Source: Thermoanaerobaculia bacterium
GTDB taxonomy: Bacteria; Acidobacteriota; Thermoanaerobaculia; Multivoradales; JAGPDF01
DNA length: 56,566 bases
Direction of reading: 5' to 3'
Assembly (NCBI GenBank): GCA_019911865.1
Contig: JAIOJQ010000385.1
Coordinates: 1 to 56,566, forward strand
Below, piece after piece: positions 28,729 to 51,787 of the stretch (position 1 is the stretch's first letter; each line of letters begins with the position of its first letter). Below the pieces are notes generated by a model. That model ran no database searches, was not told the DNA's origin, and was given only the letters and a program-made list of their open reading frames with translations. The position numbers and the translations under genes are program-made.

Positions 28729-28734
28729 GGCCGC

Positions 28735-34079: not shown

Positions 34080-34164
34080 GTCCCTCTCCCCTTGTGGCGC
34101 CGGACCGTCCAGTGGCTCGGCATTGGAGGAACGTTACCCAGGGGCATAACATCTTGTCAAGCGC

Positions 34165-35223
34165 CTAGAAAACCTCCGGAGGTTCTCCCTCCTCGAGCCG
34201 GTAGGACCCGTCCTTCTCGCGCCCAGCGAGCCGGGCCACCCGCGTAACCTGGCGGCGGCCGTCCACGCGTTCGATCTGGACGATCATGTGGACTGTCATC
34301 GAGATCAGGAAACTCTGCGACGGGACGCCGGCCTCCTGCGCGGCGTTGTCGAGCCGCAGCAGGGCGAGCAGCGGGGTCTCGCCATGGATCGTCGCGGCGC
34401 CGCCGCGGTGCGTGGTCCAGGCCTTGAGCATTTCGAGTGCCTCGGCCCCGCGGACCTCGCCCACGATGATCCGGTCGGGCTTCTCGCGCATCGCCTGGTG
34501 GATCAGATGCCGCAGGAGGACCTCCGGCGGCGAAGTCCGGAGGGCTTGTACGTTGCGGGCCGGGCACTGAAGCTCCCGGACGTCCTCAGCGAGGAAGAAG
34601 CGCAGATTCGGCTCGGTGGCGACCATCTCCTGCAGGAGCGCGTTGATGAAGGTCGTCTTGCCCGCCCCCGTGTTGCCCGAGACCAGGATGTTGTCGTGCC
34701 GGCGGAGGGCCTCACGTACGGCCGAGAGGTGAGCCGGTCGAATCACTCCGGCCTCGGCGTAGTCATCGAGCGTGAAGATCCGGGCTGCGCGCTTTCTCAG
34801 GGTGATCGTCGGAGCCGTCGTGATCGGCGGCAGGATGCCGGAGATTCGCGATCCATCGAAAGGGAGCTCGGCGTTGAGGATCGGCGAGTCGGCCGTGATG
34901 CGCGTGCCGAGGTAGGTCGCGATGGTTGCCAGGGCGCTTTCGACGTTTCGGGGCTCGACCCGATCCTCGAGGTCGACGAGGCCGCGATCGAACGCATCGA
35001 ACCAGACGTGGCCGTCGGCGTTGACGCCGATGTCGGTGACGGTCGGATCTTCGAGCAGCTGGGTGATGACGAAGCCGAGCTCGCGCCGGAGCATCGACTG
35101 GATGCGTCTTTCGCGCAGCTCGGCTCCGGAAGTGGCCACGCCCCGGTCGAGCTCGGCAGGGTCGGCGGCAGAGGTCCGGGGGGCGGCAGGGTCTGGGCTC
35201 ATCGGGTCGTCCTCAAGGCACAT
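34165..35223 (-). CDS. trbB: TrbB/VirB11 secretion ATPase
   Basis: ORF 34165..35694 trimmed to ATG 35223, which overlaps the traG stop (TGATG); ATG 35202 is an alternative. Walker A is ILVSGNTGAGKTTF, and …IIVGEVRGAEALEML… is present. Confidence 0.9.
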   Translation of the reverse strand: MCLEDDPMSPDPAAPRTSAADPAELDRGVATSGAELRERRIQSMLRRELGFVITQLLEDPTVTDIGVNADGHVWFDAFDRGLVDLEDRVEPRNVESALATIATYLGTRITADSPILNAELPFDGSRISGILPPITTAPTITLRKRAARIFTLDDYAEAGVIRPAHLSAVREALRRHDNILVSGNTGAGKTTFINALLQEMVATEPNLRFFLAEDVRELQCPARNVQALRTSPPEVLLRHLIHQAMREKPDRIIVGEVRGAEALEMLKAWTTHRGGAATIHGETPLLALLRLDNAAQEAGVPSQSFLISMTVHMIVQIERVDGRRQVTRVARLAGREKDGSYRLEEGEPPEVF

Positions 35224-37343
35224 CAGGCCGCGTCGTGGTAGGGGTTCTTGCTCGCCCGGCGCTTCAGGACCGGGTGCTCGAAATAGCGGATGCGCTGGGT
35301 GCGATAGGGGAGTTCGCCGGCGACCAGGAGCAGCTGCTCGTCGGGTGCGATGCGCCGTACCTCGTCGGGGGTCAGAAGGCGACGACTGGCCTGGCCGAGG
35401 CTCTCTCCATGGCTCTGGTTCGAGGAGCCGACGTGCTTGTCGGAAAACAGGCCGCCGGCGTGCGGGCTGTTCGAACCCTCGTTGAGCGATTGGTTCTCGG
35501 TAAAGACCGTGGTCGTGCCGGCCATCTTCGAGAGGTACTCGGCGGTGAATTCGTCGGCCGTGCCGAAGGCCTGGAGAATGCGGGTGTTGCCGATCAGCGT
35601 CTCCCAGGAGTTCGGATAGAGGCCCTTGAGCTGCGAAAGATCCTGCACGAGCATCCAGAGCGAGATCGAGTAGGCGCGGGCGTAGGCGATGCACTCTTCA
35701 ATCACCGGCAGCCGGCGAAGGGCCGCGAATTCGTCGAGCAGAAACAGTACCCTCCCCACGGTTTCCTTGGGCCGGCGCAGCAATCCGCGCAGCGCCGAAC
35801 CGATCAGAAGCGCCATCCAGCGGCCATGGGAGGCCAGCCGATCTGGCGGCAGCACGAGGTAGACCGTCGACGGGATGAGGCCGAGCTGCCACAAGTCGAA
35901 GGAGGTCTTCGAGAGGCTCTCGACCATCGCCGGCGAATCGAGAAAGCGCGTGTGCTGGTCGGCAGTGGCGAAGATGCCCGAGCGGGTCTTCTCGTCCTGG
36001 GCGCGGATGCGGTCGGCGCTCCACTGGAGCCGTTCGAGGACGGTGGCCACCGGGCCGGTGCCCGCAACCAGCGACCGGATGTGGAGCAGGAGCTCAGCCT
36101 GGCCTCGGGCCGGCAGTCCGCGCTTGGTGGTGTTTACCAGGTGCCGCAGGATGTAGTCCGGGCCGGACTTGGCTCGCCGCTGGTCCTGCTTCGTCCCGAC
36201 GAACTGCGCCTCTTCTTCCCGTTCCTGGTCGTCCATCTGGAGCGACCTGGCCGACTGCGCTCGCACCCGGGCCATGGCGCGCAGTTGATGGATCAGCTCG
36301 GTGCCTCCGAGCGAGAGCAGGCGGCGCACCTCGATCAGGGTTCGGCACGGATCGCCCTTCGGATAGATCGTCGCGACCCAGAGGATGAAGGCGGTCAGGA
36401 GCGCTTCGGCTTGCTCCGTCCAGAACGGCTCGCTGTTGGCGTGGAGCGCCTGCGGGACGAGGATCGAGGCCAGGAGCGCGGCATCGTCCACGCAGGTGTC
36501 GGTGGCCGGATCGAGCCAGTCCATCGGGTTGTAGCAGGCGCGCTGAGGCTTGAGCACCGCATCCCAAGCGTGCCCTTCCGGGGTGCCCCGCAGGCGCTCC
36601 TGACCGGGCTGGTCGGAGCCCACGCCCAGGTAGTCCTCGAGGTCGTTGATTCCGAGCCGTCCGAGGGCGTCGAACGGGTCGAAGGCCACGATCGTCTGCC
36701 CCAGGTAGCGAGCCCGGTACCTCGCCGTGACGGCGAAGTTCTCGCCCTTGAGGTCGGTCACCATGACGGACCCGCCGGCGTAGGCGAGCAGGTTCGGAAT
36801 CACCAGGGAGACGCCCTTGCCCGCGCCGGTCGAGGCGCAGGTGAGCACGTGGGCCTCGCTGTCGGCGCGCAGCAGCTCGCCGCGTGGATTCGTCCCGACG
36901 ACCAAGCCGTACCCGGGATCGAGGAACTGGTCGGGACGGGCCCAGCGCGAAGAGCCGAAGGTATCCGACTGGCCGGACGCCGAAAGCTTGCGGCCCCGCT
37001 TGACCTTGGTGAGCGCGAAGAAGACGACGGCAAGCCCCATGAGGACGAGAGGAAAGGCGTCGACCTCGCCTCGCTGGCCCGCTCGCCTGGGTTGGGCTCT
37101 CTGGGCCTTGGTCGAAGCCACGAGTGCGCCCAGCGGTCCGCCGGAGCTGCGCGGCTTGGCCTCGGCCTTGGCCGACTTCGGCTTGGGCGGCGCGGTAGCC
37201 GCGCGCGGGGTGAGCGCGGCAAGGAGCAAAAGGCCCACGACGCCAAGCGGAATGGCGATCGCGGCGACGCGCGAAAGCGGCGTCACGAAGGTGCGGCGCA
37301 GCCGTGGAAACAGATAGGCGAGGGGCAGTCGGGCTTGGCTCAC
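35223..37343 (-). CDS. traG: TraG/VirD4 type IV coupling protein
   Basis: It has N-terminal TM helices, Walker A LTCASTGAGKGVSLVIPNLL, and LFLLDEFAAL (Walker B). The start overlaps the giant ORF stop by 4 nt. Confidence 0.9.
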   Translation of the reverse strand: MSQARLPLAYLFPRLRRTFVTPLSRVAAIAIPLGVVGLLLLAALTPRAATAPPKPKSAKAEAKPRSSGGPLGALVASTKAQRAQPRRAGQRGEVDAFPLVLMGLAVVFFALTKVKRGRKLSASGQSDTFGSSRWARPDQFLDPGYGLVVGTNPRGELLRADSEAHVLTCASTGAGKGVSLVIPNLLAYAGGSVMVTDLKGENFAVTARYRARYLGQTIVAFDPFDALGRLGINDLEDYLGVGSDQPGQERLRGTPEGHAWDAVLKPQRACYNPMDWLDPATDTCVDDAALLASILVPQALHANSEPFWTEQAEALLTAFILWVATIYPKGDPCRTLIEVRRLLSLGGTELIHQLRAMARVRAQSARSLQMDDQEREEEAQFVGTKQDQRRAKSGPDYILRHLVNTTKRGLPARGQAELLLHIRSLVAGTGPVATVLERLQWSADRIRAQDEKTRSGIFATADQHTRFLDSPAMVESLSKTSFDLWQLGLIPSTVYLVLPPDRLASHGRWMALLIGSALRGLLRRPKETVGRVLFLLDEFAALRRLPVIEECIAYARAYSISLWMLVQDLSQLKGLYPNSWETLIGNTRILQAFGTADEFTAEYLSKMAGTTTVFTENQSLNEGSNSPHAGGLFSDKHVGSSNQSHGESLGQASRRLLTPDEVRRIAPDEQLLLVAGELPYRTQRIRYFEHPVLKRRASKNPYHDAA

Positions 37344-40300
37344 CGGCTGATTCCTTTCGACGGAGCGGCAATGGCACGCGCGGCCGCCGCGGCCGTGCGA
37401 CCGGCAGCCAGCGCGGCGGAGACGAACGGTTTGACCTGGGGCGCGACGAAAGTCATCGCTTTCTGAACCCCCTCGCGGGCGACGAGGCTCGCCAGCCGGA
37501 CGATCTCCTGGGCCTGACCCTGAGAGAGCCGCTCCAGAGCCCCCTGGACCCTGCGACTCGTCTGAGTGAAGTTGAGAGCGGAAAGGGCGGCGTTCGCCGC
37601 GGTGGACACCGGGCTTTGGGCGCCCGCCCCGGGGGCCTTCCCGCCGGGCGAGGGACGCGGCAGCGCCGCGCTCGGTCCTCGCGTGCCTGGAAGGGAAGGC
37701 GCGCGAGCCGGACTCGGAGCGTCCCGGGTGACACCCGGCTGCAAGGCGACCGAACGGTCGCGAGCGAGCGCGCCGAGCGCCGAGCGCGTGGCCGACAGGG
37801 AGGTGGATTTCGCCGTGGCGACGGCGCTTCGCGTCAGCCGCTCCGGATCGTCATCGAGGAGCCGCTCGGCCGCATGGAACGCGATCTGAGCCGTCGTCAG
37901 GATGCGAGCCGTCCTGGCGGCGGCAACCGCCGCCGGCGTGTACGCCTCGGCCGGAAGGTGGCGCGCTGCGCGGGCAGCCTCGGCGGCCTCAAGGTCGAAG
38001 CTCGCACCCTCGGCGCGAAGTTCGCCGAGCCGCTTCTCGAATCGCTCCGCGGCCTCGGCGGGCGCTGGACGCGCACCGAGAGAGCGGTTCTGCTCGCGCG
38101 CCAGGTCCTTGCCCGAACGCTCCAACTGCTCGCGAACCTGTTCCATCTCGACGATCCTCGAGGAGAGCCGGAGAATCTCGTCCCGGGCACCTTCCCAGGA
38201 ATCGGGAAGGGCCAAAGCCGACGTAAGAGGAGCTGCGCCAGGACGGTGCACCTCGAGCGTTGGCGCAGAAGGTCCCGGAGCAGGTGCAGCTGAGCCCACG
38301 TGGTCGAGCCGTTCCAGCGTCGGCCGAGCCGGTTGCGCAGCCCTTTCCGAGGCCTCCGGGGCTTGGCGCACGGCGGCAGGGCCTTCGCGGGCAAGCTCGG
38401 GTTCGCGCGCCTGGTGAACGACCGCAAGGGCGAGCTGGGAACCCAGATTCTGCGGGCGGTCGAGTACGACGGCCAGATCGCGCTCGCTTTTCCCGAAGAC
38501 CAGCTCGACTTGCTCGTTCGGCGTGCCGGCGAGCAGGCGCTGGATCTGGCCGGCGTAGCGGGGTCCGTCGATTTCAACCACGATCGGTCGGCCCTCGCCG
38601 AGGGCCAGGTGCTCGCCGCTGCGCGCATGGGCGACGTAGTGGTGGTCGAGCTCGAGAAGCGGCGTCGGCCCGTCCTTGGGCCCACCCTCGATCCGGATTC
38701 CGCCTCGGGGGTCGAAGCCCGCGATGCGTCCGGACTCGAGCGGCCCTCCCGGCTCGGAGCGGAACCGGACGAAGTCGCCTTGCGCAAAGCTGCGCTCGGC
38801 CGAGCGATACGTGACCATGTGGGCAGCCTCGGCGGGCGCGATCCGTTCGATCCGGACCGCGTTTCCGCCGACCCCCTGTCCGGAGGCCACGGCGGCGAGC
38901 TGCTGCCCTTCCCGGTCCACGGCGACGAGGCGGAAGGCGGACATCGACCCGCCCGGTTCGCGCCGGTAGAGCCAGTCGCCGGGGCGCCAGTGCTCGGCCC
39001 GGAGGGTCTCGGGCGAGAGGGCCGGCACTTTCTCCCGGACTTCGACCCGGACCTGCTCATCGAGGTTCAAGCGGCCGGCGCGGTGGAGATGGGCGCGGAC
39101 CGTGTCCGTGCGCTCGGCAAGCACCTGCCCGGCGCGGTCGGCGTCGAGCGAGAGGTTGGTGACGAGCAGAGCGGGCGCAGGCCCGGGAGCGGCGAGCGCT
39201 GTCGAGGTCGCGCGTACCTCGCGGTCGGAGTCGACCTCGACCACGCGGACCCGCGCAGGTGAGCCCGCAAGCGCCGCCGAGAGGGCGGCCGAAACTTGAA
39301 CGCCCGGATCGTTGGCGGTCGGGCGGCGCCAGAGCGCGGCCAGGGCCGAGCCGGCGTAGCGGCGCTCCGCGGCCGGAATCAAGCGCTCGCCGGCTGTGGC
39401 CGCCAGCAGGGCCGGCCCCCGAGCAGCGAAGGGGGAAAGCTCGGGGTGCCGCGCGGCGAAGACCACTCGCAACCCCCCGGCATGAGCGCGATCGACCAGG
39501 CCGCGAAGCTCGTGGACCGCGAGCCGCTCGGCGCCGTGGACGATGGCTACCGGCGCAACCCGCCCAGCCCCGAACGCCCAGCCGCCGCCTTCGAGGAAGT
39601 ACCGGCGCGAGGCGATCTGTCCGGCGGGAATGCCGGCCTCGAGAAGTTCGCCGCGCTGCTCGAAGCCGGTTGTCACGTGCACGGGATGCCAGCCGCGCCG
39701 CGCGAGTTCGCGGTGGAGACCCACCGCAAAGGGCGTGGCCGCGGACGCTTGCGCGCCGCCATCGCGGCTCGTGACGAACGAGAACTGATGTCGATTCTCG
39801 AGGACCTCGGCGACGGCAGCGCGATCGGCCGGATCGGCAATCGCACCGCGGAGCCGGGTTTCCAGCTCTTGCGGCCGCGCCGAGGCGGGCACGATCGGTT
39901 CGACGTCGCGGCCGCGGGCGATCTGGGCGGCCACGTAGAGCTCCTCGGCGTAGTTGTCCACGCGGGCAAGGCGCGAGCCGTCGGGCGAGAAGACGACGTC
40001 GGCCCTCCGGTGAAGCTGTTCATCGAGCGCTTCGAGCGCGACGCTTCCTCCCGTATGCACCCAGGCGCGAGTCAGCACCTCGTCGAACGCGAAGGCAGGC
40101 GAGCGCTCGGAAAGCTCGGCGAGCGAGCGCGCGATGGCCACCTCCGGATCGTTCGTCGGCCGATGGGAGCCCTCGATCTTCTGGCTCTTCAGGATGGCCT
40201 CGGCGTTCTGAACGAAGGCCTCCCGGCTCTTGCCGTAGCGCTCGAGGTACTCCGTCTCCCGAGCGAATCTGGCGAACAGTTCCGGGCTCTCGGCCTGGAC

Positions 40301-43300
40301 CCTCGCCGCCTCGGTCATCAGGTGCGGGATCGGAGGCACTCGGGGAGGCTCGGGCGGCTGGGGCGGCCGGGAAGCCCCGGAACTGCCGGGCGGCTCGCCC
40401 GGCGAACCGGGTGAGGGCGCCTGCTGCTCCACGGCCGGAAGGGCGGACGGCTCCGGGGGAGGGGCCGCCTGGCGCGCACGCTCGGGCGCGAGCTCTGCGA
40501 CCGCGAAGGCGTGGACGCGGCCGTCACCAGAGTCCCACAGGCGCAGCTGATCGCCGTGGGTCGCCCCGCCATCGAGAGCCATCAACCGATCGGTTGCCGG
40601 CGCGACGCCGGACTCGATCGGCGTGTGACCGAAGAAGACACGCTCGGACACCGGCGGCTCGCCAGCCTGCCACCACGGGACCTTCGCCCCGTCGGCTCGG
40701 GCGACATTCCGAATCGACAGGACGGTTTGCGGCTCCTGATCCTCGAACGAGCGACCCGGGGAGAGTCCCGCGTGAACGACGAGACCTTGCGGCAGGCGCA
40801 GTGCGTGCGGCAGGCGCCCGAGAAAGTCGAGATAGCTGTCGGGAACCGTGCGCGAGCCGGACTCCGCGCCGAAGCTCTCGAAAGTCGCAGCGAGACCGCT
40901 GCCGAGAAACATCCCCTCCTTCTCGCGCCCGTGAAGTGCCAGCAGCCGCTGTTCGTGATTTCCGCGAACGCCCAGGAAGCTCTCGCCGAGACTCTGGACG
41001 TAGTCGAGCACCTGCTTCGAGTCAGGCCCCCGGTCGACCAGGTCGCCGACCGAGACCAGCACATCGCCCCGGTCCGGGCGAAACTCCAGCCGCTCGAGCG
41101 CGCGCTTGAGTGTCCCGAGCTCACCGTGGACGTCACCGACTACGAGCACGCGTCGCCCCGCGAGGGCTTGGCGCGCGTCGTCGACGACCAGGCCCGCGGA
41201 AGTTGCGCTCCGCTCGACCGGAGCCACGGTCGACCGCGCCGAGGCGGGCGCCACGGGCAAGGACGCATCGAACTCGGTCAGGTCCAGCACGTCGGGGGCA
41301 TCGGCCATCCGTGCGGCTACCGGCGACCTGCCGGGTGGGCGAGCTTCTCCCTCACGGGTCTTGGCCGTTGCCTCTGGAGCAGGCTCCTCCCGAGCCCGGG
41401 CGGGTGAGTCGATGCGGCGTACCTGCCCGGCGTTGAGGGCAGCCCAAATGTGCTGGCCACTTTGGACGGAATAGGTCGAGTCGTAGCCGCCGGCGAGCAG
41501 CCGATCGCGAACGGCCATCATGGCCTCGGCGCGATGATCGTCGTTGTCGAGATCGAAACCGGGGCGGGAGCGGGCGAAGGCCGCGCCGGCGGCGTCGAGA
41601 AAGGAGGCCCCCGCGATGCGGTCTCCAGAAAGCAGGTCCCCACGCTCGCGAGCGAGAGCGACGGCGGCCGGATCCAGCGTCGCTAGGTAGTCGGCCGGGT
41701 AGCCGTGGAGGAGCGAAAACGGCCGGGCAATCGAGACCTCGAGCTCGACGACTTCCTTCGAGTGAGGCCCCGGCGATGCGGCGAACTGTTCGGCGAGTTC
41801 GCGGTGCTGCGTGAAGTTGATACCAGCGACCAGTCCGCGACGTCGTCCGTCGACGGACAGGTCATCGGCTACGGCTTGTCCTCGGTAGGAGGATCGTCCG
41901 GGGACCGGTAGTGGGACTCCGTCGGGGGATACGAAAACGGTGGCGGGTAGCCCAAGGCCTGGGACAGCGCGAGGACGCCCATCGGGCCGGTCTCTTCGAG
42001 CTTCGCTCGCAGCTCCGGGGGCCTCTGGGCGAGGTACTCCTCCCAAGTTGGAAGCGGCTTGGAATCGGGGGTCGGCGGGTTCATCGGGGCTCCTGAGTGT
42101 AGTTGAGGGGGCCGAGAGGACCTCGGTCGGGGCGGCAGGCGGCGCCGCTGGCTCGGTCCATCCGGCGAGCGGCGCGCCGACAGCGACTCTCGGAACGGCC
42201 TCGTGGGCAGAACGCCGAGTGGGCTCGGACTCGGATCGCAGCTCGAGCTCGTCACGCAGTCGGAACCGAATGGCGCGAGGATCAAGCCCTTCCGAAGCGA
42301 GCCTCTCCACGTAGTCGGCTGCGTCCCCTTTGGGCGCAAGCCAGGCAGGCGCCGTGGCAATGGATACCTTGGAGACAATGGATCCGAGGGCGCCGCCCAC
42401 GGCGGCGGCTTGCCTCGCGCCGGCCTCGTCCTTGTCGGGCCAGACGATGACCGAGGCGCCGCGCAGGAACTCCAGATTGCGCTGCTGGGGTCGGTTCGAG
42501 GCGCTGTGCGTGCCGTAGGCCTGGAGGCCGAGTGCGGCAAGGGCGTCGGCGGCCTTCTCGCCCTCGACGAGAAAGACCGGACGGGCCGGATTGAAGGCCA
42601 CCTCCGAGCGGTAAAGAGGCGCATCGGCCGCGTGGAGCTTCTCGGCCTCGGGCGTTCCGCGGCGATTGAGCGACCAGCCACCGCGAAACCAACGGACCTG
42701 CTTGGTGCCGGTTTCGTTGCCGGGCGCGTCCTTGTCCCAACGCGCCTTGTAGGCAAAGAGGTTCCCGTCTCGATCTCGAATGGCCCAGACGTGCTGCGGC
42801 GTACCGAAAGTCGGATGCCGGAGCTTGTAGGGATCCGGCCAGGCCTTCATCGGCGTCCAAGCGACGGGACTGCGCTCGACCTCGTGCCTCGAGGGTTCAC
42901 TGCGCCGGACCTCGAACGAGGGCGCGTCGCTCTTGAAGGTGTCGTAGCTGACGCCGAGAGCGCCCAGCACGCGCTCGTGGCTGCAGCCGGCGTAGCAGTG
43001 GAGTAGCGGCTTGCCATCGCCGCCGGTACCGATCGACAGACTTCGGCGGCCGCTCTTGGCGCCGTCCTTGTGGCCCGGGCAGAAGGCCTGAAACTGGTGG
43101 GAAGGGCCCGTCGGCTTGAAGCCACCCGAGTCGAGCAGGCGGCGAACCTGGTCGACCGCGTCGGGGGCGTAGACGCGCCTCGAGAGCGCGCGCGACTCGG
43201 GACTGGACGGCGAGGAAGGCCCGCTCATCGATGGAACTCCTGCAGTTGGTGGGGAAACGGGGGGCGAGGGCGCAGGCTCGCTCAGCGGCCCGGCGCTGGG

Positions 43301-46300
43301 GCTTCGCTCGTCGCCCGATCGATCGCCGGCAGCGGCTCCAGCAGCGCCTTCTTGTAGCTCGCCACCGCGAACCAACCGCCGAGCCAGCCCCCGACCATCG
43401 CCAGGATCAGCAGCAGCAGCGCCGCCGCCGCGTACTCCGCCCAGAACCTTTTGCTCGGCGCCAGAGCGATCTTGAGAGCCTGCTTGTGCTCGTTGGCCTC
43501 CTTGCGCAGGAGCGTCTGGTGCTGGAGCGCCTTGTTCAGACCGTCCTGCACGCGCTCGCGCAGCTTCGAAAACTCCGAGGTCATCGTCGGTATCGCCGCG
43601 TCCACCTTGGCGAGCTGCGCCGAGAGCGTCTGCGGCGTCTCTCCCGGATGCTCGGGCAACTCGAAGGCCGTCGCCAGCTTCTGGACCTGCTCCTCGATCC
43701 TCTGGAGGCGGGGAGCGACGGTGCCCAGGTCGTCGGTCGAACTCTCGGAGGTCATCAGCAGCCTCGCGAGTGCCTGGACGATCTCTGCCTGGAGACCCAG
43801 CGTCTCCTCCACCTGAGCCTGGGTGTGTTGGAGGAGGCCCAGAACCGCCTCCGGCGCTGCCGCCGGGGTTTCCGTGGCCACTGGTGCCGATTGGCCATGG
43901 ATCGGGACCGTCGGGAGGTGAGTCGTCTTGGCGAAGGGACCGTTCGAGCCGGACATAGCGGAGATCCTCCGGAGTCAGTGCGACAGTTGGCGAAAGCGTG
44001 GCGGCGATCCATTCGGCGCGAAGCCGTGTGTCGGTGCTCTCGAGGGCCTCGAGGCGTCCGAGAAGAAGTCCTTTCGACTCCTCGGGTCGATCGAGGGCGG
44101 GGATGTCGAGCGCGAGCATTTGCCGCACGGTGTCGACGCTTTCCATGTAGCGCGGCAGGTCGCCCGCCACGGCGGCGGCCTCGACGTTCTCGAGATTGAT
44201 CGAGCCGTAGAGAAGGCGTCGCTGGTGTTCCGTTCGCGTGAGCCCGGGAGGGACCGTGGCGCGAAGTTCGCGGTGAATCTCCCGGGCGAAGGCCAGCGTC
44301 GCCTCGGCGTTGAGCAGGTAGCGTGAGGGCACGCCGGACCGCTCCATCTGCCAGGACGCGAAGGCGGAAACCACCGGTGAGGGCAGGCGCCGAAGATCGT
44401 CGGCTCGATCCCGGTGAACGCTTGTGTACTGACCCCGAAGCGCCTCGGCAAGCGTCGTCCACGCCCGCAGGCGTTGCTCCGCCTCGCTCGCTTGCTCGAA
44501 GCGCGTCCAGGCCTGGTAGGCCAGGTGGCTCAGGCCCGGCGTCTCCTGATCCATCGCGTCGAGCGGCCGGGCGTGCGCGGCGAGCGAGGCGATCAGCTGC
44601 TCGGTCGCGGCGCGAGCGCGGCCCTCGTCGCGGACGATGCCATTGGCAAGCGGTGCCGCCGCGGCTCCCGAACTCGAGCTTGCCGCCAGAGCCATCGGAC
44701 GAAGGTGGGGCGCCTCGAACAGGGTGGCGAGCTGCTGTGGGTCGTCCGTGACGACCGCGACGTGGTACCTCGAGCGGGTCAAGTCGACGGTCGGGTTGGC
44801 CGAGGAGAGCACCTGGGCCTGTTCTCCCGTGTGGTAGGCCGCCAGGACCTCGTCCTTGGTGATGGATTGGGCCGAGTGCGAAGTGACCGAATAGCCGAAG
44901 TCGAACGTATTCAGATGCTGCGAGGAAAGCTGGACGCGGATCGGCTCGCCATGGGCTCGGCGTCGATCGAGCTCGAAGACGGCGATCTGCTCGCTGGCAC
45001 TCGCTGGGTCCGGCCGAACCTCGACGAGCGTGGCCAGGTCGCCGTTGTTGATGCTCTCGGCTCTCTCGGTCTTGCGAAACTGCACGCGGTCGCCGACGAC
45101 GAGCGTGAGCTTGGACATCTCGAGCGCGGACACCTGGCCCGACAGCTCTCGAACGGAGACCGTGGCTTCCGTGCCGTCGGGAAGCGCGAGGGTCACGCTC
45201 GCGGTGTTGGAATCGGCCCGCCGGACCTCGACATAGGAGTCCCGGCGAAGCCGAAGATCGCCGTGGCCGGTTGGAAAGTGGAGAAAGAGCGGATGCGGAT
45301 CTCGGGAGTTGTTGGCGCGAAGGTAAGCCGAGATATCGCCGGAGTCCGCTGCCGTCCAGGAGAGATCCCGCAGCCGCAAGAGTGAGATCTGACCGCGGCG
45401 TGGATCGAGCTCTCCAAGAGGCCCGAGCCGGAGCTCCCGGACGATTCCAGCGAACTCGTCGCGCGCAGCGTGCGTCGGAAAGACCACCAGGCTCTCGTCG
45501 CGCCGTTCCGGAGGGTTTGCCAGGTAGAGCGCCGCGACAGCCTCGCGCTGGACGTAGGGGTCCTGGACGACGATGAGGTTGCGGGCGGCCGTATCGGGCC
45601 GAGCGAGGCTTCGGTAGTCCTCGAGTCGCCCGGTGAGCTTCTCGCGCTTCTTGGCAACTTCGGCCGAGCCGAGCTCCGGCAGGGCGCAGAGCGCCTCTCG
45701 GGTGCGCTCGATCCCCCGAGCCGCGACAAAGGCCAAAAGTTCGCGGCGGCGGGTCACGAGAGCGGAGTCCGATCGAGAGGTCGCGCGCAGCTCGTAGAGG
45801 GCCCTGCCGGGCCGCTGGTGCGTGGCAAACGCAGCCACGCGCAGCGCATTGGCATCGGCCGGGGCGCGTCGACTCGTGGGATCGGGCGCGTGCTGGCGAT
45901 TGAGCTCCTGGATCCGGTAGATCGGCACGCCGAAAGCCGAGAGCTGCTGGGGGATCGAGCCCGCGGGGACTGCGTGATGTTGCTGGCGATCGCCCACCGC
46001 GTAGACCTTGGCGCCGGCGTGAAGGGCCATGCGGGCGAATCGATTCCAGTCCTCCTGACCGGTCTGGCCGACCTCGTCGAGAATCCAGAGCTCCCGCGAG
46101 GCCAGATCCTTCGGCAGTGGCCGCCGGATGAAGCCCTGTACCGTCTCGGCTCCGACGCCGTACTCGCCGAGAGATTCGACCGCGCGCCGGGTTGGCGCAA
46201 AGAAGCGGACCGTCCAGCCCTCGCGCCGGGCGAGCGCCTGCAGCGCTTCGAGTGATCGAGACTTTCCGGCGCCGGGGCCGGCCTCGAGCATGGCGATCGA

Positions 46301-49063
46301 ACTCGTGCCCCGCAGCGCCTGGCCGAGGGCGAGCAGCTGCTGGTCGGTCAGGTTCTTGAGGGCGGCCGGTTCGGGACTTGCGGCCTGCTGCTCCTGGTAC
46401 CAGCGGCGAAGGGATTCAAGGTCCCGCACGGTCGCGGGCGCGATTGCCTGCGGCCGGGCCATGAGCTGCGTCATGAGGCTGTAGTTGTCGGTTTCAGCCG
46501 CGCGCGCCCCTTGCGTGGTCAGTTGGTCTTTCGAGTGCGGCAGCAGGCCATGGAGCCGGCGCGCGATCGCCGCGTCGACCGCGCGCGTCGTGGCGCGGAT
46601 CGCCTCGTCCTGGCGAAGGCCCGAAACTCGCAAGAGCCGAATCAAGGCGGTCCTCTGGAGCTCGCCGCGGGAGAAGACGGAGTTGCGCTCGGCCAGGCGG
46701 GCTACGGCGTACTCGACGCTCGCTTTGGCCGTCGGCGGCAAAGGCCGCCTCTCGTCCGGGCTGGCGGGCGAGGAACGCAGTTGCGACGCGCTCGATCCTC
46801 GCGTCCCGGGAGGCGGAGCCAGGGTGACCCCGGGCGTATCGAGTCCGAATGTCTGCCGAGCCTCGTCCGCAAACGCTCCAGGGTGGGAGGCAGCCAGCGC
46901 CGTGAGGGCGTCGGATTGAATCTGCCGGGCATGAGCTTCGAGCAAGATGCCGTGAGGTGGCTGCGTGATCGAGGCGAGCAGGATCTCGGCAGCCGGAGCG
47001 GATGCCGCGAACTGCTCGGGACTGCGGACCGCGAGAGTGCCTCGCGCCGAGTCGGCCACCAGCAGAAGCGCCTGACCGCGGCCCTCCGATCGGGCAAGGG
47101 AAGAGACACGCCTGGCCACTCGATCGAGAAAGGAAGGGTGCTCGACGGCGCGCACGGCCTTGGCGCGAAGGCCGGTGCCGGAGGGCAGCACGATGTGGTC
47201 GGCGCTCTCGACCGCGAGCAAGGCGGTCGCCTCGGCCCGAGGGGGTGCGGGTTCGCTCGGATCCTCGCCGGCGATGACGAGGGTGCCGCGACGGTCCGGG
47301 TCGAGCGCCAGGCTTCGCTCGCGGGCGGCGCGGGAGAGCGAGAGCGCATCGAATCCGAGCTGACGCCCCTTCTGTTGCCACTGCGGGATCAGGGCTTCCC
47401 AGCGGATGCGCCCGGGTTTGGCCTCGCGGGTCGTCAAGACGGCGTGGTCGCGCAGCTGCTGGCGGGTCCGTGGGGTGGTCCTGGACGGATCCAAGCCGGC
47501 CGCGCGCATGCGCTCGGCTTGCGCCGCGGTGATCTTGGTCGCACGTGAGGAGAAGGCTCGAGCGACGCTCTCTGGAACATCGGCGAGGCGAGCGACGAGC
47601 GTTTGGGGGTCGATCTCGACGCGGTAGCCCAGCGCGCGAAGCTCGGAGGCAAGCTGCGCGGAGTAGAGCTGCTCGTAGTGGCGAACGTGCTGCCGGATGA
47701 GAAGCGGATTGAGCGGACCGTAACCTCGACCCCGACGGGCGAGGTTGAGCACGAAGGCGTGGGTATGCAGCTGCGGATCGAGTGCCCGGGAAAAGCCGTG
47801 GTCGAACCGGGCTACCAGGAACTCTCCGGTCGCGACGAAGGCACGTCTCGACTCGGTGCCGGCGTCGCGCTCCATCGCCGCCAGAGCGGTGAGTACGGCT
47901 CGCCGATGGGCTTCGAGGATGCGGGAGTCCTCACCGAGCAGCGCCTGGACGGAGACCGACTTGTCCGGGGCGAAGATGTAGTCGAAGCCGGCGCGCCGGG
48001 TCTCGGGCGTCTCGCCGCGCGCAGGTTGCGCGAGTGTCCGAGCTCCGTCGGGGCTTCGCCCTTCTGCGAGGTTCTCGAAGGCTCGCGCCTCGATGGGCTC
48101 GTCGGACGAAAGGCCGAGGCGAGCCGCGAGCTTGCCGGTCCACAACCCCTCCCCAGAATCGAGCATGAGGCCCGTGCTCTCGCCCGGAACGAACGGCGGA
48201 GGCGAGCCGGGAGTTCGGAAGACGGGAGCCAGGCCCCGAAGCTGGGCGTCCGCAAGGACGCCGCCGAGCTCGGACGGAGCGAGCTCGAGCCTGCGCACTT
48301 CGAGGGCGCCGAAGCTGGCGCTCGATGGGTCGGCTGCGGCTTGAAGCAAGAGCGCCGCGCCCGGCTGCAGGATGAGCTCGCGGCCGCCCCCGAGAGGGAT
48401 GGCAAACCCCGTGAGACCCGACTCGGCGAGAACGCCGGGCTCGGCCAGCGGCGAGCTGGCTTGAAGGCGGGTGAGAAGAGGTGCGAGTGCGTCCCGGGGC
48501 TCACCCGATTGCGGGACCGGAAGATGGCGAGCCTCCGGGTCGAACTCCGGATAGAGCGCCTGGATTCGCGAGGAGAAGGCCGCGAGCGTTTCCGGAGTCG
48601 CCGGAATCCACCAGCGCCGAGTTTCGAAACCTCTGGACTGCTCGTAGAGGATTCCACCCGAGGTGAGCCGAAGGACTTCCTCGCCGCCGATTCTCACGGA
48701 AGGACCCGAGGCTTGTCCCGGCCCAGTGCTCCCGATCCCGAGGTAAACGCCGTGCGCCTGAAGGTGGGCTGTGATCTGGCGCAGCTCGGCAAGGGCCACC
48801 GCTTCGCCCGGAGTCAGAGACTCGGGAGAGCGACCGACCGGGAGGAGGTTGGGGGAGTCGGGGTCGGCTGGGCCCGGACGGCCCGCACGAACCCAGCCGG
48901 GCCGCGCCTCTTCGGCGAGGGCCGCGTCGACCGCCGCGGTCGCGGCGGCGACATCTTGTCGGAGCGAGGGCGCCACCTCGGCGGCGCCCTGGGCGAGCTG
49001 CTCGCGGTAGTAGCTCTTGGCGTGACCCGCGGAGAGGCCGCCCGTTCCGTGCACAACGCCCAT
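37340..49063 (-). CDS. Stop-free 3,907-codon ORF: MOBF relaxase + RecD-like helicase + Zn/Toprim primase + unknown domain + PPP metallophosphatase + helicase-like tail. Probably composite (see findings).
   Basis: A single frame with no stop over 11,724 nt. The recognisable domains are listed as separate features. Two internal segments (43282..43956, 41869..42084) have about 50% third-position GC in this frame, against about 80-85% elsewhere. Confidence 0.6.
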   Translation of the reverse strand: MGVVHGTGGLSAGHAKSYYREQLAQGAAEVAPSLRQDVAAATAAVDAALAEEARPGWVRAGRPGPADPDSPNLLPVGRSPESLTPGEAVALAELRQITAHLQAHGVYLGIGSTGPGQASGPSVRIGGEEVLRLTSGGILYEQSRGFETRRWWIPATPETLAAFSSRIQALYPEFDPEARHLPVPQSGEPRDALAPLLTRLQASSPLAEPGVLAESGLTGFAIPLGGGRELILQPGAALLLQAAADPSSASFGALEVRRLELAPSELGGVLADAQLRGLAPVFRTPGSPPPFVPGESTGLMLDSGEGLWTGKLAARLGLSSDEPIEARAFENLAEGRSPDGARTLAQPARGETPETRRAGFDYIFAPDKSVSVQALLGEDSRILEAHRRAVLTALAAMERDAGTESRRAFVATGEFLVARFDHGFSRALDPQLHTHAFVLNLARRGRGYGPLNPLLIRQHVRHYEQLYSAQLASELRALGYRVEIDPQTLVARLADVPESVARAFSSRATKITAAQAERMRAAGLDPSRTTPRTRQQLRDHAVLTTREAKPGRIRWEALIPQWQQKGRQLGFDALSLSRAARERSLALDPDRRGTLVIAGEDPSEPAPPRAEATALLAVESADHIVLPSGTGLRAKAVRAVEHPSFLDRVARRVSSLARSEGRGQALLLVADSARGTLAVRSPEQFAASAPAAEILLASITQPPHGILLEAHARQIQSDALTALAASHPGAFADEARQTFGLDTPGVTLAPPPGTRGSSASQLRSSPASPDERRPLPPTAKASVEYAVARLAERNSVFSRGELQRTALIRLLRVSGLRQDEAIRATTRAVDAAIARRLHGLLPHSKDQLTTQGARAAETDNYSLMTQLMARPQAIAPATVRDLESLRRWYQEQQAASPEPAALKNLTDQQLLALGQALRGTSSIAMLEAGPGAGKSRSLEALQALARREGWTVRFFAPTRRAVESLGEYGVGAETVQGFIRRPLPKDLASRELWILDEVGQTGQEDWNRFARMALHAGAKVYAVGDRQQHHAVPAGSIPQQLSAFGVPIYRIQELNRQHAPDPTSRRAPADANALRVAAFATHQRPGRALYELRATSRSDSALVTRRRELLAFVAARGIERTREALCALPELGSAEVAKKREKLTGRLEDYRSLARPDTAARNLIVVQDPYVQREAVAALYLANPPERRDESLVVFPTHAARDEFAGIVRELRLGPLGELDPRRGQISLLRLRDLSWTAADSGDISAYLRANNSRDPHPLFLHFPTGHGDLRLRRDSYVEVRRADSNTASVTLALPDGTEATVSVRELSGQVSALEMSKLTLVVGDRVQFRKTERAESINNGDLATLVEVRPDPASASEQIAVFELDRRRAHGEPIRVQLSSQHLNTFDFGYSVTSHSAQSITKDEVLAAYHTGEQAQVLSSANPTVDLTRSRYHVAVVTDDPQQLATLFEAPHLRPMALAASSSSGAAAAPLANGIVRDEGRARAATEQLIASLAAHARPLDAMDQETPGLSHLAYQAWTRFEQASEAEQRLRAWTTLAEALRGQYTSVHRDRADDLRRLPSPVVSAFASWQMERSGVPSRYLLNAEATLAFAREIHRELRATVPPGLTRTEHQRRLLYGSINLENVEAAAVAGDLPRYMESVDTVRQMLALDIPALDRPEESKGLLLGRLEALESTDTRLRAEWIAATLSPTVALTPEDLRYVRLERSLRQDDSPPDGPDPWPIGTSGHGNPGGSAGGGSGPPPTHPGSGGGDAGSPGRDRPGTREAADDLREFDRRPGHRRSPPPEDRGAGPEAGDGLRVARASGRDAADALGAARQGGRGDTDDDLGVFEAARARAGRSEQGAPAPDAPAQGGQRAQAGSQDRSGAEQKVLGGVRGGGAAAADPGDGRGLARRLVRGGELQEGAAGAAAGDRSGDERSPSAGPLSEPAPSPPVSPPTAGVPSMSGPSSPSSPESRALSRRVYAPDAVDQVRRLLDSGGFKPTGPSHQFQAFCPGHKDGAKSGRRSLSIGTGGDGKPLLHCYAGCSHERVLGALGVSYDTFKSDAPSFEVRRSEPSRHEVERSPVAWTPMKAWPDPYKLRHPTFGTPQHVWAIRDRDGNLFAYKARWDKDAPGNETGTKQVRWFRGGWSLNRRGTPEAEKLHAADAPLYRSEVAFNPARPVFLVEGEKAADALAALGLQAYGTHSASNRPQQRNLEFLRGASVIVWPDKDEAGARQAAAVGGALGSIVSKVSIATAPAWLAPKGDAADYVERLASEGLDPRAIRFRLRDELELRSESEPTRRSAHEAVPRVAVGAPLAGWTEPAAPPAAPTEVLSAPSTTLRSPDEPADPRFQAASNLGGVPRPEAPGAASEARRDRPDGRPRAVPGLGLPATVFVSPDGVPLPVPGRSSYRGQAVADDLSVDGRRRGLVAGINFTQHRELAEQFAASPGPHSKEVVELEVSIARPFSLLHGYPADYLATLDPAAVALARERGDLLSGDRIAGASFLDAAGAAFARSRPGFDLDNDDHRAEAMMAVRDRLLAGGYDSTYSVQSGQHIWAALNAGQVRRIDSPARAREEPAPEATAKTREGEARPPGRSPVAARMADAPDVLDLTEFDASLPVAPASARSTVAPVERSATSAGLVVDDARQALAGRRVLVVGDVHGELGTLKRALERLEFRPDRGDVLVSVGDLVDRGPDSKQVLDYVQSLGESFLGVRGNHEQRLLALHGREKEGMFLGSGLAATFESFGAESGSRTVPDSYLDFLGRLPHALRLPQGLVVHAGLSPGRSFEDQEPQTVLSIRNVARADGAKVPWWQAGEPPVSERVFFGHTPIESGVAPATDRLMALDGGATHGDQLRLWDSGDGRVHAFAVAELAPERARQAAPPPEPSALPAVEQQAPSPGSPGEPPGSSGASRPPQPPEPPRVPPIPHLMTEAARVQAESPELFARFARETEYLERYGKSREAFVQNAEAILKSQKIEGSHRPTNDPEVAIARSLAELSERSPAFAFDEVLTRAWVHTGGSVALEALDEQLHRRADVVFSPDGSRLARVDNYAEELYVAAQIARGRDVEPIVPASARPQELETRLRGAIADPADRAAVAEVLENRHQFSFVTSRDGGAQASAATPFAVGLHRELARRGWHPVHVTTGFEQRGELLEAGIPAGQIASRRYFLEGGGWAFGAGRVAPVAIVHGAERLAVHELRGLVDRAHAGGLRVVFAARHPELSPFAARGPALLAATAGERLIPAAERRYAGSALAALWRRPTANDPGVQVSAALSAALAGSPARVRVVEVDSDREVRATSTALAAPGPAPALLVTNLSLDADRAGQVLAERTDTVRAHLHRAGRLNLDEQVRVEVREKVPALSPETLRAEHWRPGDWLYRREPGGSMSAFRLVAVDREGQQLAAVASGQGVGGNAVRIERIAPAEAAHMVTYRSAERSFAQGDFVRFRSEPGGPLESGRIAGFDPRGGIRIEGGPKDGPTPLLELDHHYVAHARSGEHLALGEGRPIVVEIDGPRYAGQIQRLLAGTPNEQVELVFGKSERDLAVVLDRPQNLGSQLALAVVHQAREPELAREGPAAVRQAPEASERAAQPARPTLERLDHVGSAAPAPGPSAPTLEVHRPGAAPLTSALALPDSWEGARDEILRLSSRIVEMEQVREQLERSGKDLAREQNRSLGARPAPAEAAERFEKRLGELRAEGASFDLEAAEAARAARHLPAEAYTPAAVAAARTARILTTAQIAFHAAERLLDDDPERLTRSAVATAKSTSLSATRSALGALARDRSVALQPGVTRDAPSPARAPSLPGTRGPSAALPRPSPGGKAPGAGAQSPVSTAANAALSALNFTQTSRRVQGALERLSQGQAQEIVRLASLVAREGVQKAMTFVAPQVKPFVSAALAAGRTAAAAARAIAAPSKGISR
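40500..41165 (-). other. Domain: PPP-family (calcineurin-like/ApaH-PrpE-like) metallophosphoesterase
   Basis: RRVLVVGDVHGELGTL, LVSVGDLVDRGPDS, LGVRGNHEQRL, GLVVHAGL, VFFGHTP. Confidence 0.8.
41869..42084 (-). CDS. Alternative-frame (+1) small ORF nested in the giant ORF
   Basis: AGGAG-N5-ATG at 42084. 71 aa: MNPPTPDSKPLPTWEEYLAQRPPELRAKLEETGPMGVLALSQALGYPPPF... Third-position GC is 83% here and 53% in the giant frame (hand count). Pro-rich, so less certain. Confidence 0.4.
   Translation of the reverse strand: MNPPTPDSKPLPTWEEYLAQRPPELRAKLEETGPMGVLALSQALGYPPPFSYPPTESHYRSPDDPPTEDKP
42090..43228 (-). other. Module: DNA primase (CHC2-like zinc motif + Toprim) with its own SD and ATG at 43228
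   Basis: AGGAG-N8-ATG at 43228 (MSGPSSPSS...). FQAFCPGHKDG...LLHCYAGCSHERVLGALG; VFLVEGEKAADALAALG; VIVWPDKDEAGARQ; PKGDAADYV. Confidence 0.8.
43282..43956 (-). CDS. Alternative-frame (+1) gene nested in the giant ORF: coiled-coil protein with C-terminal TM helix
   Basis: GGAGGA-N8-ATG at 43956. 224 aa of normal composition (…LQRIEEQVQKLATAFELPEHP…KEANEHKQALKIAL…WAEYAAAALLLLILAMVGGWLGGWFAV). Hand-counted third-position GC is about 85% in this frame and about 50% in the giant frame. Confidence 0.65.
   Translation of the reverse strand: MSGSNGPFAKTTHLPTVPIHGQSAPVATETPAAAPEAVLGLLQHTQAQVEETLGLQAEIVQALARLLMTSESSTDDLGTVAPRLQRIEEQVQKLATAFELPEHPGETPQTLSAQLAKVDAAIPTMTSEFSKLRERVQDGLNKALQHQTLLRKEANEHKQALKIALAPSKRFWAEYAAAALLLLILAMVGGWLGGWFAVASYKKALLEPLPAIDRATSEAPAPGR
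44700..46400 (-). other. Domain: RecD/TraA-like P-loop helicase
   Basis: IAMLEAGPGAGKSRSLEAL (46262..46290), LWILDEVGQ, VYAVGDRQQH, FDFGYSVTSHSAQSITKDEV (about 44832..44910). Confidence 0.8.
47450..49063 (-). other. Domain: TrwC/TraI-type (MOBF) relaxase
   Basis: AKSYYREQ near the N-terminus; GLWTGKLAARLGL; RAGFDYIFAPDKSVSVQAL; ARFDHGFSRALDPQLHTHAFVLN (compare TrwC FRHETSRERDPQLHTHAVILN). About 280 aa are inserted between the YY segment and W.GK..LGL. Confidence 0.85.
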
Positions 49064-49080
49064 AACGTTACGTTATGCGA
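49062..49080. promoter_or_regulatory. ATAAC-N5-GTTATGCGA palindromic site (copy 2 of 2), overlapping the relaxase start codon
   Basis: ATAACgttacGTTATGCGA, followed by TAACGC. On the minus strand the GTTATG contains the ATG at 49063. Confidence 0.45.
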
Positions 49081-49145
49081 TAACGCAACGCTAGGCAACA
49101 CAGAGACGCAACCCCGCCTCTGACGGGTGCGCGCGGCTGGACGCC

Positions 49146-49781
49146 TCAGCCGCGGGTGGGGGAGTTGCCCACGTACTTCTCGGCGACGATGCGCTCGGCA
49201 TCGGCAGCGAGCTGGGTGATCGTTTCCATGGGGATGGCCTTGCCCCCGAGCCCGTGGGCCTGAAGGGCGAGGGTAAGGAAGGTCGTCTGGGTCTCGATGG
49301 CTCGCAACACCTGCGCGAGGCTGCCGCCACCTTGCTCGAGAGCCCGCCGCAGAGTCAGGGTGACCCAGTCTTCGAGCAGCAGGTTGAGCCGGCTCGCCTC
49401 GGCATGAGCCTCGCGACGCAGCGAGTCCGGGAGCATCAGGATCCAGTGCTCGTGGTACTCGTTGAGGACCCGCTGAACGTAACGGCTCAGCGAGACGCCC
49501 GCCGACCGGGCCGCGGCCTGAAACGGTTCGAGGTCGGCCTTCGGGACGCGGATGAGGTCGGTGTCGGGCGCGGCGGCGCGCGCGATGCGCAGCAGATCCT
49601 GGATGTGCTGCGAGACCGGTCGATGCATTGCCTCGGCCTCGGCTGCGAGCTCCTGGAAATGATCGGCGTCGAGGTAGAGGCTGACCCGGTTCTTGCTGTC
49701 CGACCAGGCGTGCCGGGGCCGTTTCGGACCGGAACTTGCGGCCGGCAAACTGGACGCTGGCGGTTTCTTTCGCGAAGCCAT
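49146..49781 (-). CDS. Tandem ribbon-helix-helix protein (relaxosome accessory/MobC-TrwA-like position)
   Basis: ORF trimmed to ATG 49781 (MASRKKPPASS...). There are two RHH-like units: RVSLYLDADHFQELAAEAEAMHRPVSQHIQDLL and LIRVPKADLEPFQAAARSAGVSLSRYVQRVL. It lies directly upstream of the relaxase. Confidence 0.6.
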   Translation of the reverse strand: MASRKKPPASSLPAASSGPKRPRHAWSDSKNRVSLYLDADHFQELAAEAEAMHRPVSQHIQDLLRIARAAAPDTDLIRVPKADLEPFQAAARSAGVSLSRYVQRVLNEYHEHWILMLPDSLRREAHAEASRLNLLLEDWVTLTLRRALEQGGGSLAQVLRAIETQTTFLTLALQAHGLGGKAIPMETITQLAADAERIVAEKYVGNSPTRG

Positions 49782-51382: not shown

Positions 51383-51787
51383 TCAGCTCGCGACCGACCA
51401 GTCCTCGATCTTGAGCTCGGGTACCCGGGTGAACTCGCGCAGATTCCGGGTCACCAGAGTCAGCTTCCGAATCTGCGCTTGGGCGGCAATCAACAGGTCA
51501 TAGGCCCCGATGTTCTGGCCCGACCGGACCAAGCGAAGCCGAATCTCGGCGGCCGCCTCGGCATCCTCGGGAAGCAGCTCGAGCACGGGGAATGCGAGGC
51601 TCTGAATCCTTCGCAACTCCGCCTCGGATCGAGAGCTCTTGAGGGCGCCATAGTGGAGCTCATGATGCACGAGGCACGGCAGTCCCACCGAACCCGGCGC
51701 CTGACGCCGCAAGCGGCGGGCGACTGTCGACGAGGAATCCCGCAGCGCGTCGACGACGGCATTCGTATCGAGCAGGTAGCGGATCAT
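51383..51787 (-). CDS. vapC: VapC PIN-domain toxin
   Basis: Trimmed to ATG 51787: MIRYLLDTNAVVDAL...LVHHELHYGALKS...NIGAYDLLIAAQAQIRKLTLVTRNLREFTRVPELKIEDWS. It closely parallels MvpT/VapC. Confidence 0.9.
   Translation of the reverse strand: MIRYLLDTNAVVDALRDSSSTVARRLRRQAPGSVGLPCLVHHELHYGALKSSRSEAELRRIQSLAFPVLELLPEDAEAAAEIRLRLVRSGQNIGAYDLLIAAQAQIRKLTLVTRNLREFTRVPELKIEDWSVAS

Follow-up and report, generated by a model that had tools for sequence, protein, structure and literature searches.

A conserved gene nested out of frame over the linker of a giant relaxase-helicase reading frame in a Thermoanaerobaculia-labelled metagenome contig

Introduction

The DNA considered here, referred to below as the window, comprises positions 1 to 56,566 of contig JAIOJQ010000385.1 (assembly GCA_019911865.1), which NCBI labels as part of a metagenome-assembled genome (MAG) of an uncultivated Thermoanaerobaculia bacterium. 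Its minus strand carries a giant open reading frame (ORF) whose predicted product joins a relaxase-helicase, through a long linker, to a putative primase and a phosphoesterase. A first-pass annotation, made from the sequence alone, had claimed that the linker DNA encodes a protein of its own in the +1 frame, so that the locus looks like an ordinary operon of three genes (geneA, geneB and geneC) in which geneA has no stop codon. Three explanations were offered: (a) true overlapping coding, the giant protein using the alternate frame of geneB as a disordered linker; (b) a sequencing or assembly indel that hides the geneA stop; or (c) regulated frameshifting. We report that geneB is a real gene under purifying selection, that the geneA stop is truly absent, and that the reading favoured by the evidence is the first of the three.

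Layout of the locus

The features of the giant ORF are listed in Table 1. The locus was compared in three lineages, namely the window type, a 95%-identical type (contigs L002 and L010) and a 76%-identical metagenome contig, L001. NCBI names the giant ORF 'relaxase domain-containing protein' and does not list the nested gene. Two starts for the giant ORF are found in NCBI, KAB2966047.1 (3907 amino acids (aa), starting at 49063) and MBZ0103452.1 (3785 aa, starting at about 48697), and we favour the longer form because its N-terminal MGV(V/L)HGTGG is kept in L001.

Within the geneA part, a MobF/TrwC relaxase is recognised at giant aa 305–567 by Pfam TrwC (182 bits, cut-off 25), and the giant ORF also scores 180 bits with the NCBIfam MobF model NF041492 (cut-off 100). 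Downstream of the relaxase there is an AAA_30 helicase (aa 905–1060; 111 bits), a TraI_hel_assoc_N match reaches 29 bits, and a family-specific C-terminal domain sits between the helicase and the linker. With both a relaxase and an SF1B helicase recognised, the giant ORF is assigned by its domain matches to the MOBF (TrwC/TraI-type) relaxase-helicases.

The geneC part is less easily named. Its N-terminal approximately 270 aa are similar to proteins with a CHC2 zinc finger (primases of the DnaG/TraC type): a tblastn alignment of 240 aa with one protein annotated as CHC2 zinc-finger has 28% identity (E = 5e-12), and the stand-alone CHC2 zinc-finger proteins of conjugation regions are matched only remotely. 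The score of NCBIfam PRK07078 on geneC is under its cut-off, and the motifs EGEKAAD and WPDKDEAG fit Toprim by eye only. The primase part has no Pfam domain at E < 1 and no PDB sequence match, and geneC gave no match to a RepB-type primase. Further on, a Metallophos (calcineurin-like) phosphoesterase with ApaH/PrpA-like matches occupies giant aa 2638–2819, and the roughly 1000 aa that follow it have no family match. In all, about 1550 aa of the ORF lie beyond the primase-like part (37340..42013, aa 2351–3907), an unusual cargo for a relaxase.

The translation signals described in the first-pass annotation, that is GGAGGA-N8-ATG and TGA for geneB, a 53-nucleotide (nt) gap and then AGGAG-N8-ATG, are all present where it placed them. 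It had also pointed to a TGA in the +1 frame ahead of geneB; the distance of 18 nt to the ATG was right and the coordinate, given as 43978..43976, is in fact 43977..43975. At the internal start of geneC, GGAG and ATG are kept in L001, and the Logan gene calls open a gene at the ATG at 43228. A scan of 42900..44300 found no promoter- or terminator-like sites.

Table 1. Coordinates, in the window, of the giant ORF and the features within it (GC3, GC content at third codon positions; dN/dS, ratio of nonsynonymous to synonymous divergence).
Feature	Position	Strand	Basis
Giant ORF, 3907 codons	37340..49063	minus	ORF list; same ORF on 9 contigs
GeneA part, relaxase-helicase, aa 1–1702, own stop codon absent	43957..49063	minus	GC3, dN/dS, domain matches
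Linker in giant frame, aa 1703–1945	43229..43957	minus	GC3 0.33–0.53; 71% G/R/A/D/P; open in three lineages
+1-frame TGA, 18 nt ahead of geneB ATG	43975..43977	minus	Sequence; missing in L001
GeneB Shine-Dalgarno GGAGGA, 8 nt ahead of ATG	43965..43970	minus	Sequence read
GeneB, 224 codons, +1 frame relative to giant ORF, ATG start (ATG 43956..43954; TGA 43284..43282)	43282..43956	minus	ORF list, GC, dN/dS
GeneB hydrophobic (transmembrane) segment, residues about 172–200	43357..43443	minus	Invariant in three lineages
Spacer from geneB stop to primase start, 53 nt	43229..43281	minus	L001: sequence diverged, length equal
AGGAG-N8-ATG, internal giant-frame start of primase-phosphoesterase part (AGGAG 43241..43237; ATG 43228..43226)	43226..43241	minus	Sequence; Logan gene calls
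GeneC part, aa 1946–3907	37340..43228	minus	Domain and remote matches

Codon-position composition and selection

A 10-kb stretch here has as many as 61 ORFs of 60 aa or more, and because of this an open shadow ORF of 224 codons is by itself little evidence for a gene. The composition of the linker is more telling. In sliding windows over about 43960..43400, GC by codon position in the giant frame is about 0.9/0.68/0.33–0.53, whereas GC3 of the giant frame in the flanks on both sides is 0.77–0.92, so that the contrast claimed from a hand count (about 50% against 80–85%) is borne out by the per-frame profile. Read in the geneB frame, the same DNA gives about 0.68/0.42/0.92, which is the normal pattern for sequence of 67% GC and has a third-position value somewhat above the 85% first estimated. 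The inversion is limited to 43960..43300, and GC3 of the giant frame drops across the last approximately 60 codons of geneA. The linker is indeed rich in G, R, A, D and P, which make up 71% of its residues. Two other stretches of low GC3 in the giant ORF (aa 2340–2400 and 3570–3630) show no switch in the phase of substitution; as candidates for further nested genes they were rejected, and they are short P/A/G-rich linkers.

The pattern of substitution between the window and L001 follows the geneB frame. Within geneB the differences fall 32/22/74 at geneB codon positions 1/2/3, and over the same bases the two share 79% of their amino acids when read as geneB and 59% when read as giant linker, the opposite of a linker conserved as protein over an unconserved +1 product. 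By the method of Nei and Gojobori, dN/dS is 0.20 for geneB codons 11–214 (dS 0.57) and an apparent 3.5 for the giant frame over those bases. To either side it is the giant frame that is constrained, with dN/dS of 0.13 in the last 80 codons of the relaxase part and 0.28 in the first 60 codons of the primase part.

In bins of 45 nt, differences at third positions of the giant frame dominate until about 15 nt ahead of the geneB ATG, the 45 nt around that ATG are 93% identical, and from +30 to +660 of geneB the differences lie on the geneB third position. This bias is gone past the geneB stop, and the concentration on giant-frame third positions returns about 120 nt beyond it. The same flip of phase is present against the 95%-identical L010. 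Around the geneB Shine-Dalgarno (SD) sequence, a block of roughly 40 nt is identical in all three lineages, which suggests a dual constraint at the start of the gene and is consistent with the combined demands of the SD and start codon and of coding in two overlapping frames.

Because both the phase of substitution and dN/dS follow its frame, geneB is a real gene under purifying selection, and the claim that the linker is a +1-frame gene, with the frame preference that it implied, is upheld by codon-position GC, substitution and conserved start signals alike. The amino acid sequence that the giant frame makes of the same DNA is unconstrained.

Relatives and the missing stop codon

The stop codon of geneA is missing from every relative recovered. 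Seven contigs (L003–L009; runs ERR13927233, ERR4362063, ERR13927222, ERR4359705, SRR15661996 and ERR13927241, and assembly GCA_009026165.1) are each an exact substring of the window, and identical copies of the 3907-aa protein are found on nine contigs. The 95%-identical lineage (L002 and L010; protein P0004, 3906 aa, in five samples) keeps the giant ORF intact, and over 11.7 kb it shows a single indel, of 3 nt. L001, a contig of Joint Genome Institute (JGI) metagenome 3300037506, has 76% DNA identity over window positions 49754..42240 and 72% protein identity over giant aa 1–2058.

All three lineages lack a stop in the relaxase-helicase frame ahead of geneB and keep this frame open through the gene. 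The geneB GGAGGATCTCCGCTATG is identical among them, the position of the geneB TGA and the length of the 53-nt spacer are shared, and the next ATG after geneB is in phase with the relaxase frame. The claim that geneA lacks a stop codon therefore stands, being true in the identical contigs and in two diverged lineages. L001 differs in two respects. It lacks the +1-frame TGA upstream of geneB, and about 50 codons leading up to the geneB ATG are free of stops in its +1 frame. It also has a deletion of about 59 nt past the zinc finger and ahead of the primase core, at L001 position about 9220 (window about 42893..42835), which shifts the frame so that the giant frame there ends at L001 position 10058; the metagenome contig is either misassembled at this point or a decaying copy.

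The JGI gene calls on L001 (3000..10298) miss the giant ORF and include several antisense shadow ORFs; geneB is the one gene placed on the correct strand, and its start is set too late, giving 176 aa. These calls show how GC-rich shadow frames can mislead gene callers.

Wider searches added no relatives. PLSDB plasmids gave none, either for the region or for geneB (blastn, tblastn), and scans of genome, metagenome and viral contigs with the geneB alignment and with the alignment of the geneA C-terminus found no relative. Protein searches with giant aa 1301–2350 and with a linker-less concatenate of the flanks each returned nothing among the 8000 candidates listed, which are weak negatives.

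The product of geneB

The geneB protein forms one small cluster in public data. A word-indexed search of 5.8 billion proteins found no homologue outside this cluster, and a geneB profile run exhaustively with HMMER against 1.84 billion representatives recovered the cluster alone; the homologue search proposed in the first-pass annotation for the 224-aa product thus found its own cluster and nothing beyond. No Pfam or NCBIfam family matches geneB, the weak matches being far under cut-offs. Protein databases under-sample such products, as fully nested genes are seldom called by gene callers.

An AlphaFold2 model of the protein is all-helical (residues 35–68, 77–97, 111–164 and 169–205) and of low confidence, with a predicted local distance difference test (pLDDT) score of 44, which is too poor to justify a fold search. 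The most hydrophobic window of the protein (residues 180–198; Kyte-Doolittle hydropathy over 19 residues, KD19, 2.14) is followed by 26 residues. The central helices, like the hydrophobic segment, are invariant in all three lineages. The coiled coil and C-terminal transmembrane helix first proposed for geneB are roughly supported, in that the low-confidence model is helical throughout and there is one strong hydrophobic segment. The status of geneB as an orphan and its simple build of helices plus a transmembrane segment would fit an origin de novo.

The surrounding element

Directly downstream of the giant ORF lie genes for a type IV coupling protein (T4CP), VirB11, VirB4, VirB8, VirB9 and VirB10, and a ParB-like gene. 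Because the T4CP and VirB genes adjoin it, the giant ORF is taken to belong to a conjugative element with its own predicted type IV secretion system (T4SS). The bases GTGA (37340..37343) hold both the GTG that starts the T4CP gene and, overlapping with it, the stop that ends the giant ORF, and this suggests that the relaxase and the T4CP are translationally coupled. Upstream of the relaxase operon there is a pair of genes for a MazE-like antitoxin and a PIN-domain toxin (about 51383..52029, minus strand; Pfam on identical contigs). The T4CP gene (35223..37343) belongs to a 90%-identity cluster with members under both Thermoanaerobaculia and Rhodocyclaceae MAGs, and because its cluster spans both labels the host of the element is uncertain, mobility of the element or mis-binning being the two explanations.

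Discussion

We think it probable that the locus is a genuine, uninterrupted relaxase-helicase-linker-primase gene, with geneB a separate gene nested over the linker in the +1 frame, as in plasmid RSF1010. This is the overlapping coding with a disordered linker that the first-pass annotation had listed as its first alternative. Three products would be made. The full 3907-aa fusion would have as its linker the geneB DNA read one base out of phase, an unconserved and presumably disordered tether rich in G, R, A, D and P. GeneB (224 aa) would be initiated at its own GGAGGA-N8-ATG, and a primase-phosphoesterase would be initiated at the in-frame AGGAG-N8-ATG that lies 53 nt past the geneB stop. A primase tethered to the relaxase in this way would travel along with the transferred strand, and geneB would most likely encode an accessory protein, anchored in the membrane, that serves the relaxosome or the step of substrate transfer. 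We infer that all three products are produced and that the fusion of relaxase to primase is useful.

Several observations weigh against this reading. Only three lineages are known, two of which are 95% identical, and the complete in-frame fusion is seen in just these two close lineages, the L001 frame being broken by its deletion. The label 'primase' for geneC is putative, the similarity behind it being remote. The function suggested for geneB is drawn from analogy, its protein having no family match and no similarity to MobB of RSF1010-type plasmids (BLASTP E = 12; hhalign probability 0.2%). Moreover, the openness of the giant frame over geneB is compatible with chance (P about 0.2–0.3) and does not amount to evidence of selection for the fusion.

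This last point needs some explanation, as the open frame may appear to be evidence of selection and the reasoning has to be corrected in this respect. Synonymous shuffles of geneB leave the giant frame without a stop with P = 0.03, 0.05 and 0.12 for the three lineages. The sites at risk are those at which T as the third base of a geneB codon would be synonymous in geneB and yet interrupt the giant frame; T is found at 0 of about 35 of them, against 11% of other sites, and the codons ending in T have turned over among the lineages (3 of 15 shared). In the ordinary genes of the window (26171..49063), used as a control, T at codon position 3 is itself about four-fold depleted before AA/AG/GA codons (41 of 993 sites, or 4.1%, against 730 of 4567, or 16% of synonymous-T sites). 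With this context bias controlled for, 1.4 stops are expected over geneB and P(open) is 0.23. Among stretches of 225 codons taken from the rest of the giant ORF, 29% are free of stops in this shadow phase and 11% in the other one. The codon-context control abolishes the signal of the shuffle test, and the claim of selection for openness was withdrawn; the open giant frame across geneB gives no evidence of selection. Codon-context bias that lowers off-frame stops in this phase would likewise mislead naive tests for overlapping genes. Stops are rare in the +1 arrangement because the first codon position of the outer frame falls on the GC-rich third position of geneB, and the phase used is the most permissive and the easiest to evolve. 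This provides a simple rule for the choice of phase in nested genes: an outer first position that lies on an inner GC-rich third position meets few stops.

The main rival to a nested functional fusion is a neutral, accidental read-through, in which the common ancestor of these lineages had a geneA/geneB/geneC operon and lost the geneA stop; the fusion would be made and be unselected, and the separately initiated products would be the working units. In its favour, the openness of the frame is not significant and the L001 frame is broken by the deletion of about 59 nt, downstream of which the rest of L001 goes on without obvious loss. The unconstrained linker and the retention by geneB and geneC of an SD and ATG each are what such an accident would leave behind, and the agreement in phase with geneC would come about one time in three by chance. 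We nevertheless judge this account unlikely. The stop-less state has lasted in three lineages, to a nucleotide divergence of 24%, despite about 35 sites at which a silent change could have made a stop; the spacer has kept its length though its sequence has diverged; and the same layout is functional in RSF1010, where both the fusion and the nested mobB are documented.

The remaining alternatives fare worse. Programmed frameshifting at the geneA/geneB junction, which would end the relaxase or join it to the membrane anchor of geneB, might account for the SD-like GGAGGA within the geneA frame, its perfectly conserved block of about 40 nt and the long open +1 frame ahead of geneB in L001. The conserved block is explained, though, by the start signals and overlapping coding constraints noted above, and in the window the +1 frame is blocked by the TGA six codons ahead of the ATG. 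The junction has no slippery heptamer: the sole giant-frame X XXY YYZ heptamer in aa 1600–1960, A AAC CCC at 43871, falls within the geneB coding sequence, and L001 does not conserve it. The 141-nt junction RNA is also less stable than its shuffles (z = +1.3), and folding so weak in the model is in keeping with an accessible start site rather than with a stimulatory structure. Frameshifting is unsupported by these results and we hold it to be very improbable. That geneB is not a gene at all, its +1 signal being a by-product of a low-complexity linker, has in its favour that G, R, A, D and P codons begin with G or C and so raise GC3 of the +1 frame, and that geneB has a poor structure model and no homologue beyond its cluster in either search (5.8 and 1.84 billion proteins). 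Composition cannot, however, yield a giant-frame GC3 of 0.33–0.53 where genome GC3 is about 0.8–0.9, nor would it place substitutions at geneB third positions (dN/dS 0.20 against 3.5), hold the transmembrane segment and central helices invariant, or conserve the SD, ATG and stop, and we find this view scarcely credible. An indel concealing the geneA stop was suggested by the +1-frame TGA 18 nt ahead of the geneB ATG and by the fall of giant-frame GC3 over the last approximately 60 codons of geneA. It is refuted as the cause of the missing stop, and we give it practically no weight, because seven contigs (six runs and GCA_009026165.1) are base-identical to the window, two diverged lineages keep the relations of the frames without indels, and the candidate TGA is missing in L001; in addition, the +1 translation upstream of that TGA is R/S/P-rich, and the giant frame there is conserved (dN/dS 0.13).

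The locus offers a fully nested, out-of-frame bacterial gene that is verified by comparative genomics and was missed by standard annotation. It also lends itself to experiment, as two single-base mutations that would separate the functions can be designed straight from the sequence. Composition does not tell which of the two frames is the older, because a linker rich in G, R, A, D and P of itself makes the +1 frame high in GC3, and whichever frame came first, GC3 is shaped by the constraint acting now.

Comparison with known systems

In RSF1010, mobA/repB contains mobB, which is read in another frame, and RepB' corresponds to the primase domain at the C-terminus (PMC2200642; PMC5572225). For a like-for-like comparison we used the IncQ1 plasmid NZ_CP047016.1, found by a 100% match to the MobA N-terminus. 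Its outer ORF, mobA/repB, has 709 aa against 3907 aa here, and its nested mobB has 137 aa against 224 aa for geneB, each in the +1 frame. GC by codon position in the nested frame is 0.62/0.48/0.84 in the plasmid and about 0.68/0.42/0.92 here, and for the outer frame over the same stretch 0.85/0.62/0.48 and about 0.9/0.68/0.33–0.53, respectively. The linker is 64% G/R/A/D/P in the plasmid and 71% here. The hydrophobic helix of MobB spans residues 99–117 with 20 residues after it, that of geneB residues 180–198 with 26 after it, and the in-frame primase ATG follows the nested stop by 44 nt (repB') and 53 nt, the internal start here being analogous to that of RepB'. Both loci have a relaxase and a primase, here a putative one, in one ORF, with a small gene that has its own start wholly within the linker, and both nested proteins are helical, or predicted to be so, and end in a single hydrophobic helix followed by a short tail. 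As judged from its sequence, the locus has the IncQ-type MobA-MobB-RepB' organisation, in the same +1 phase.

The differences are equally clear. The relaxase here is of the MOBF/TrwC family and is accompanied by a helicase, whereas that of IncQ1 is MOBQ; the ORF continues into a phosphoesterase and about 1000 further residues; and the primase part is CHC2 zinc-finger-like (DnaG/TraC-type) in place of RepB'. The element has a predicted T4SS of its own, in contrast to the IncQ1 plasmid, which PLSDB types only as 'mobilizable', and its host is an uncultivated bacterium labelled Thermoanaerobaculia. The resemblance appears to be one of organisation and, as far as can be detected, not of descent.

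ColE1-type plasmids also encode their MobB and MobD within mobA (PMC9282650). Compared by layout, this type (mbeA/mobA with mbeB/mobB and mbeD/mobD) likewise has accessory mobilisation genes inside a relaxase gene, but it differs in having a MOBP/HEN relaxase, a small plasmid, two nested genes and no primase fusion. The nearest matches in the plasmid database to the helicase C-terminal region are Acidobacteriota MobF relaxases (28–31% identity). These stand-alone relaxases, such as that of Granulicella tundricola pACIX905 (1206 aa), end at a normal stop and have no linker, nested gene or primase module. Sog of ColIb-P9 and TraC of RP4 are transfer-linked primases with multiple products from in-frame starts; they are not known to be fused to a relaxase or to involve an out-of-frame nested gene.

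The layout of RSF1010 mobA/mobB/repB' is not peculiar to small IncQ plasmids, since it recurs in an unrelated relaxase family, on an element predicted to be self-transmissible and coming from an uncultivated lineage, and this recurrence points to a general way to link a relaxase, a membrane accessory protein and a primase. It may even be, although we regard this as a rather doubtful and tentative extension, that linkers between relaxase and primase repeatedly give rise to overprinted genes, a membrane accessory having arisen independently, and possibly de novo, within the linker of the MOBF giant relaxase and that of MOBQ MobA/RepB. If so, the arrangement would follow a functional logic, for example obligatory co-expression or a fixed stoichiometry of relaxase, anchor and primase, and would not be the accident of a lost stop. 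In kind, the arrangement is known from a classic precedent; what is new is its relaxase family, its larger scale, its orphan nested protein and its uncultivated host.

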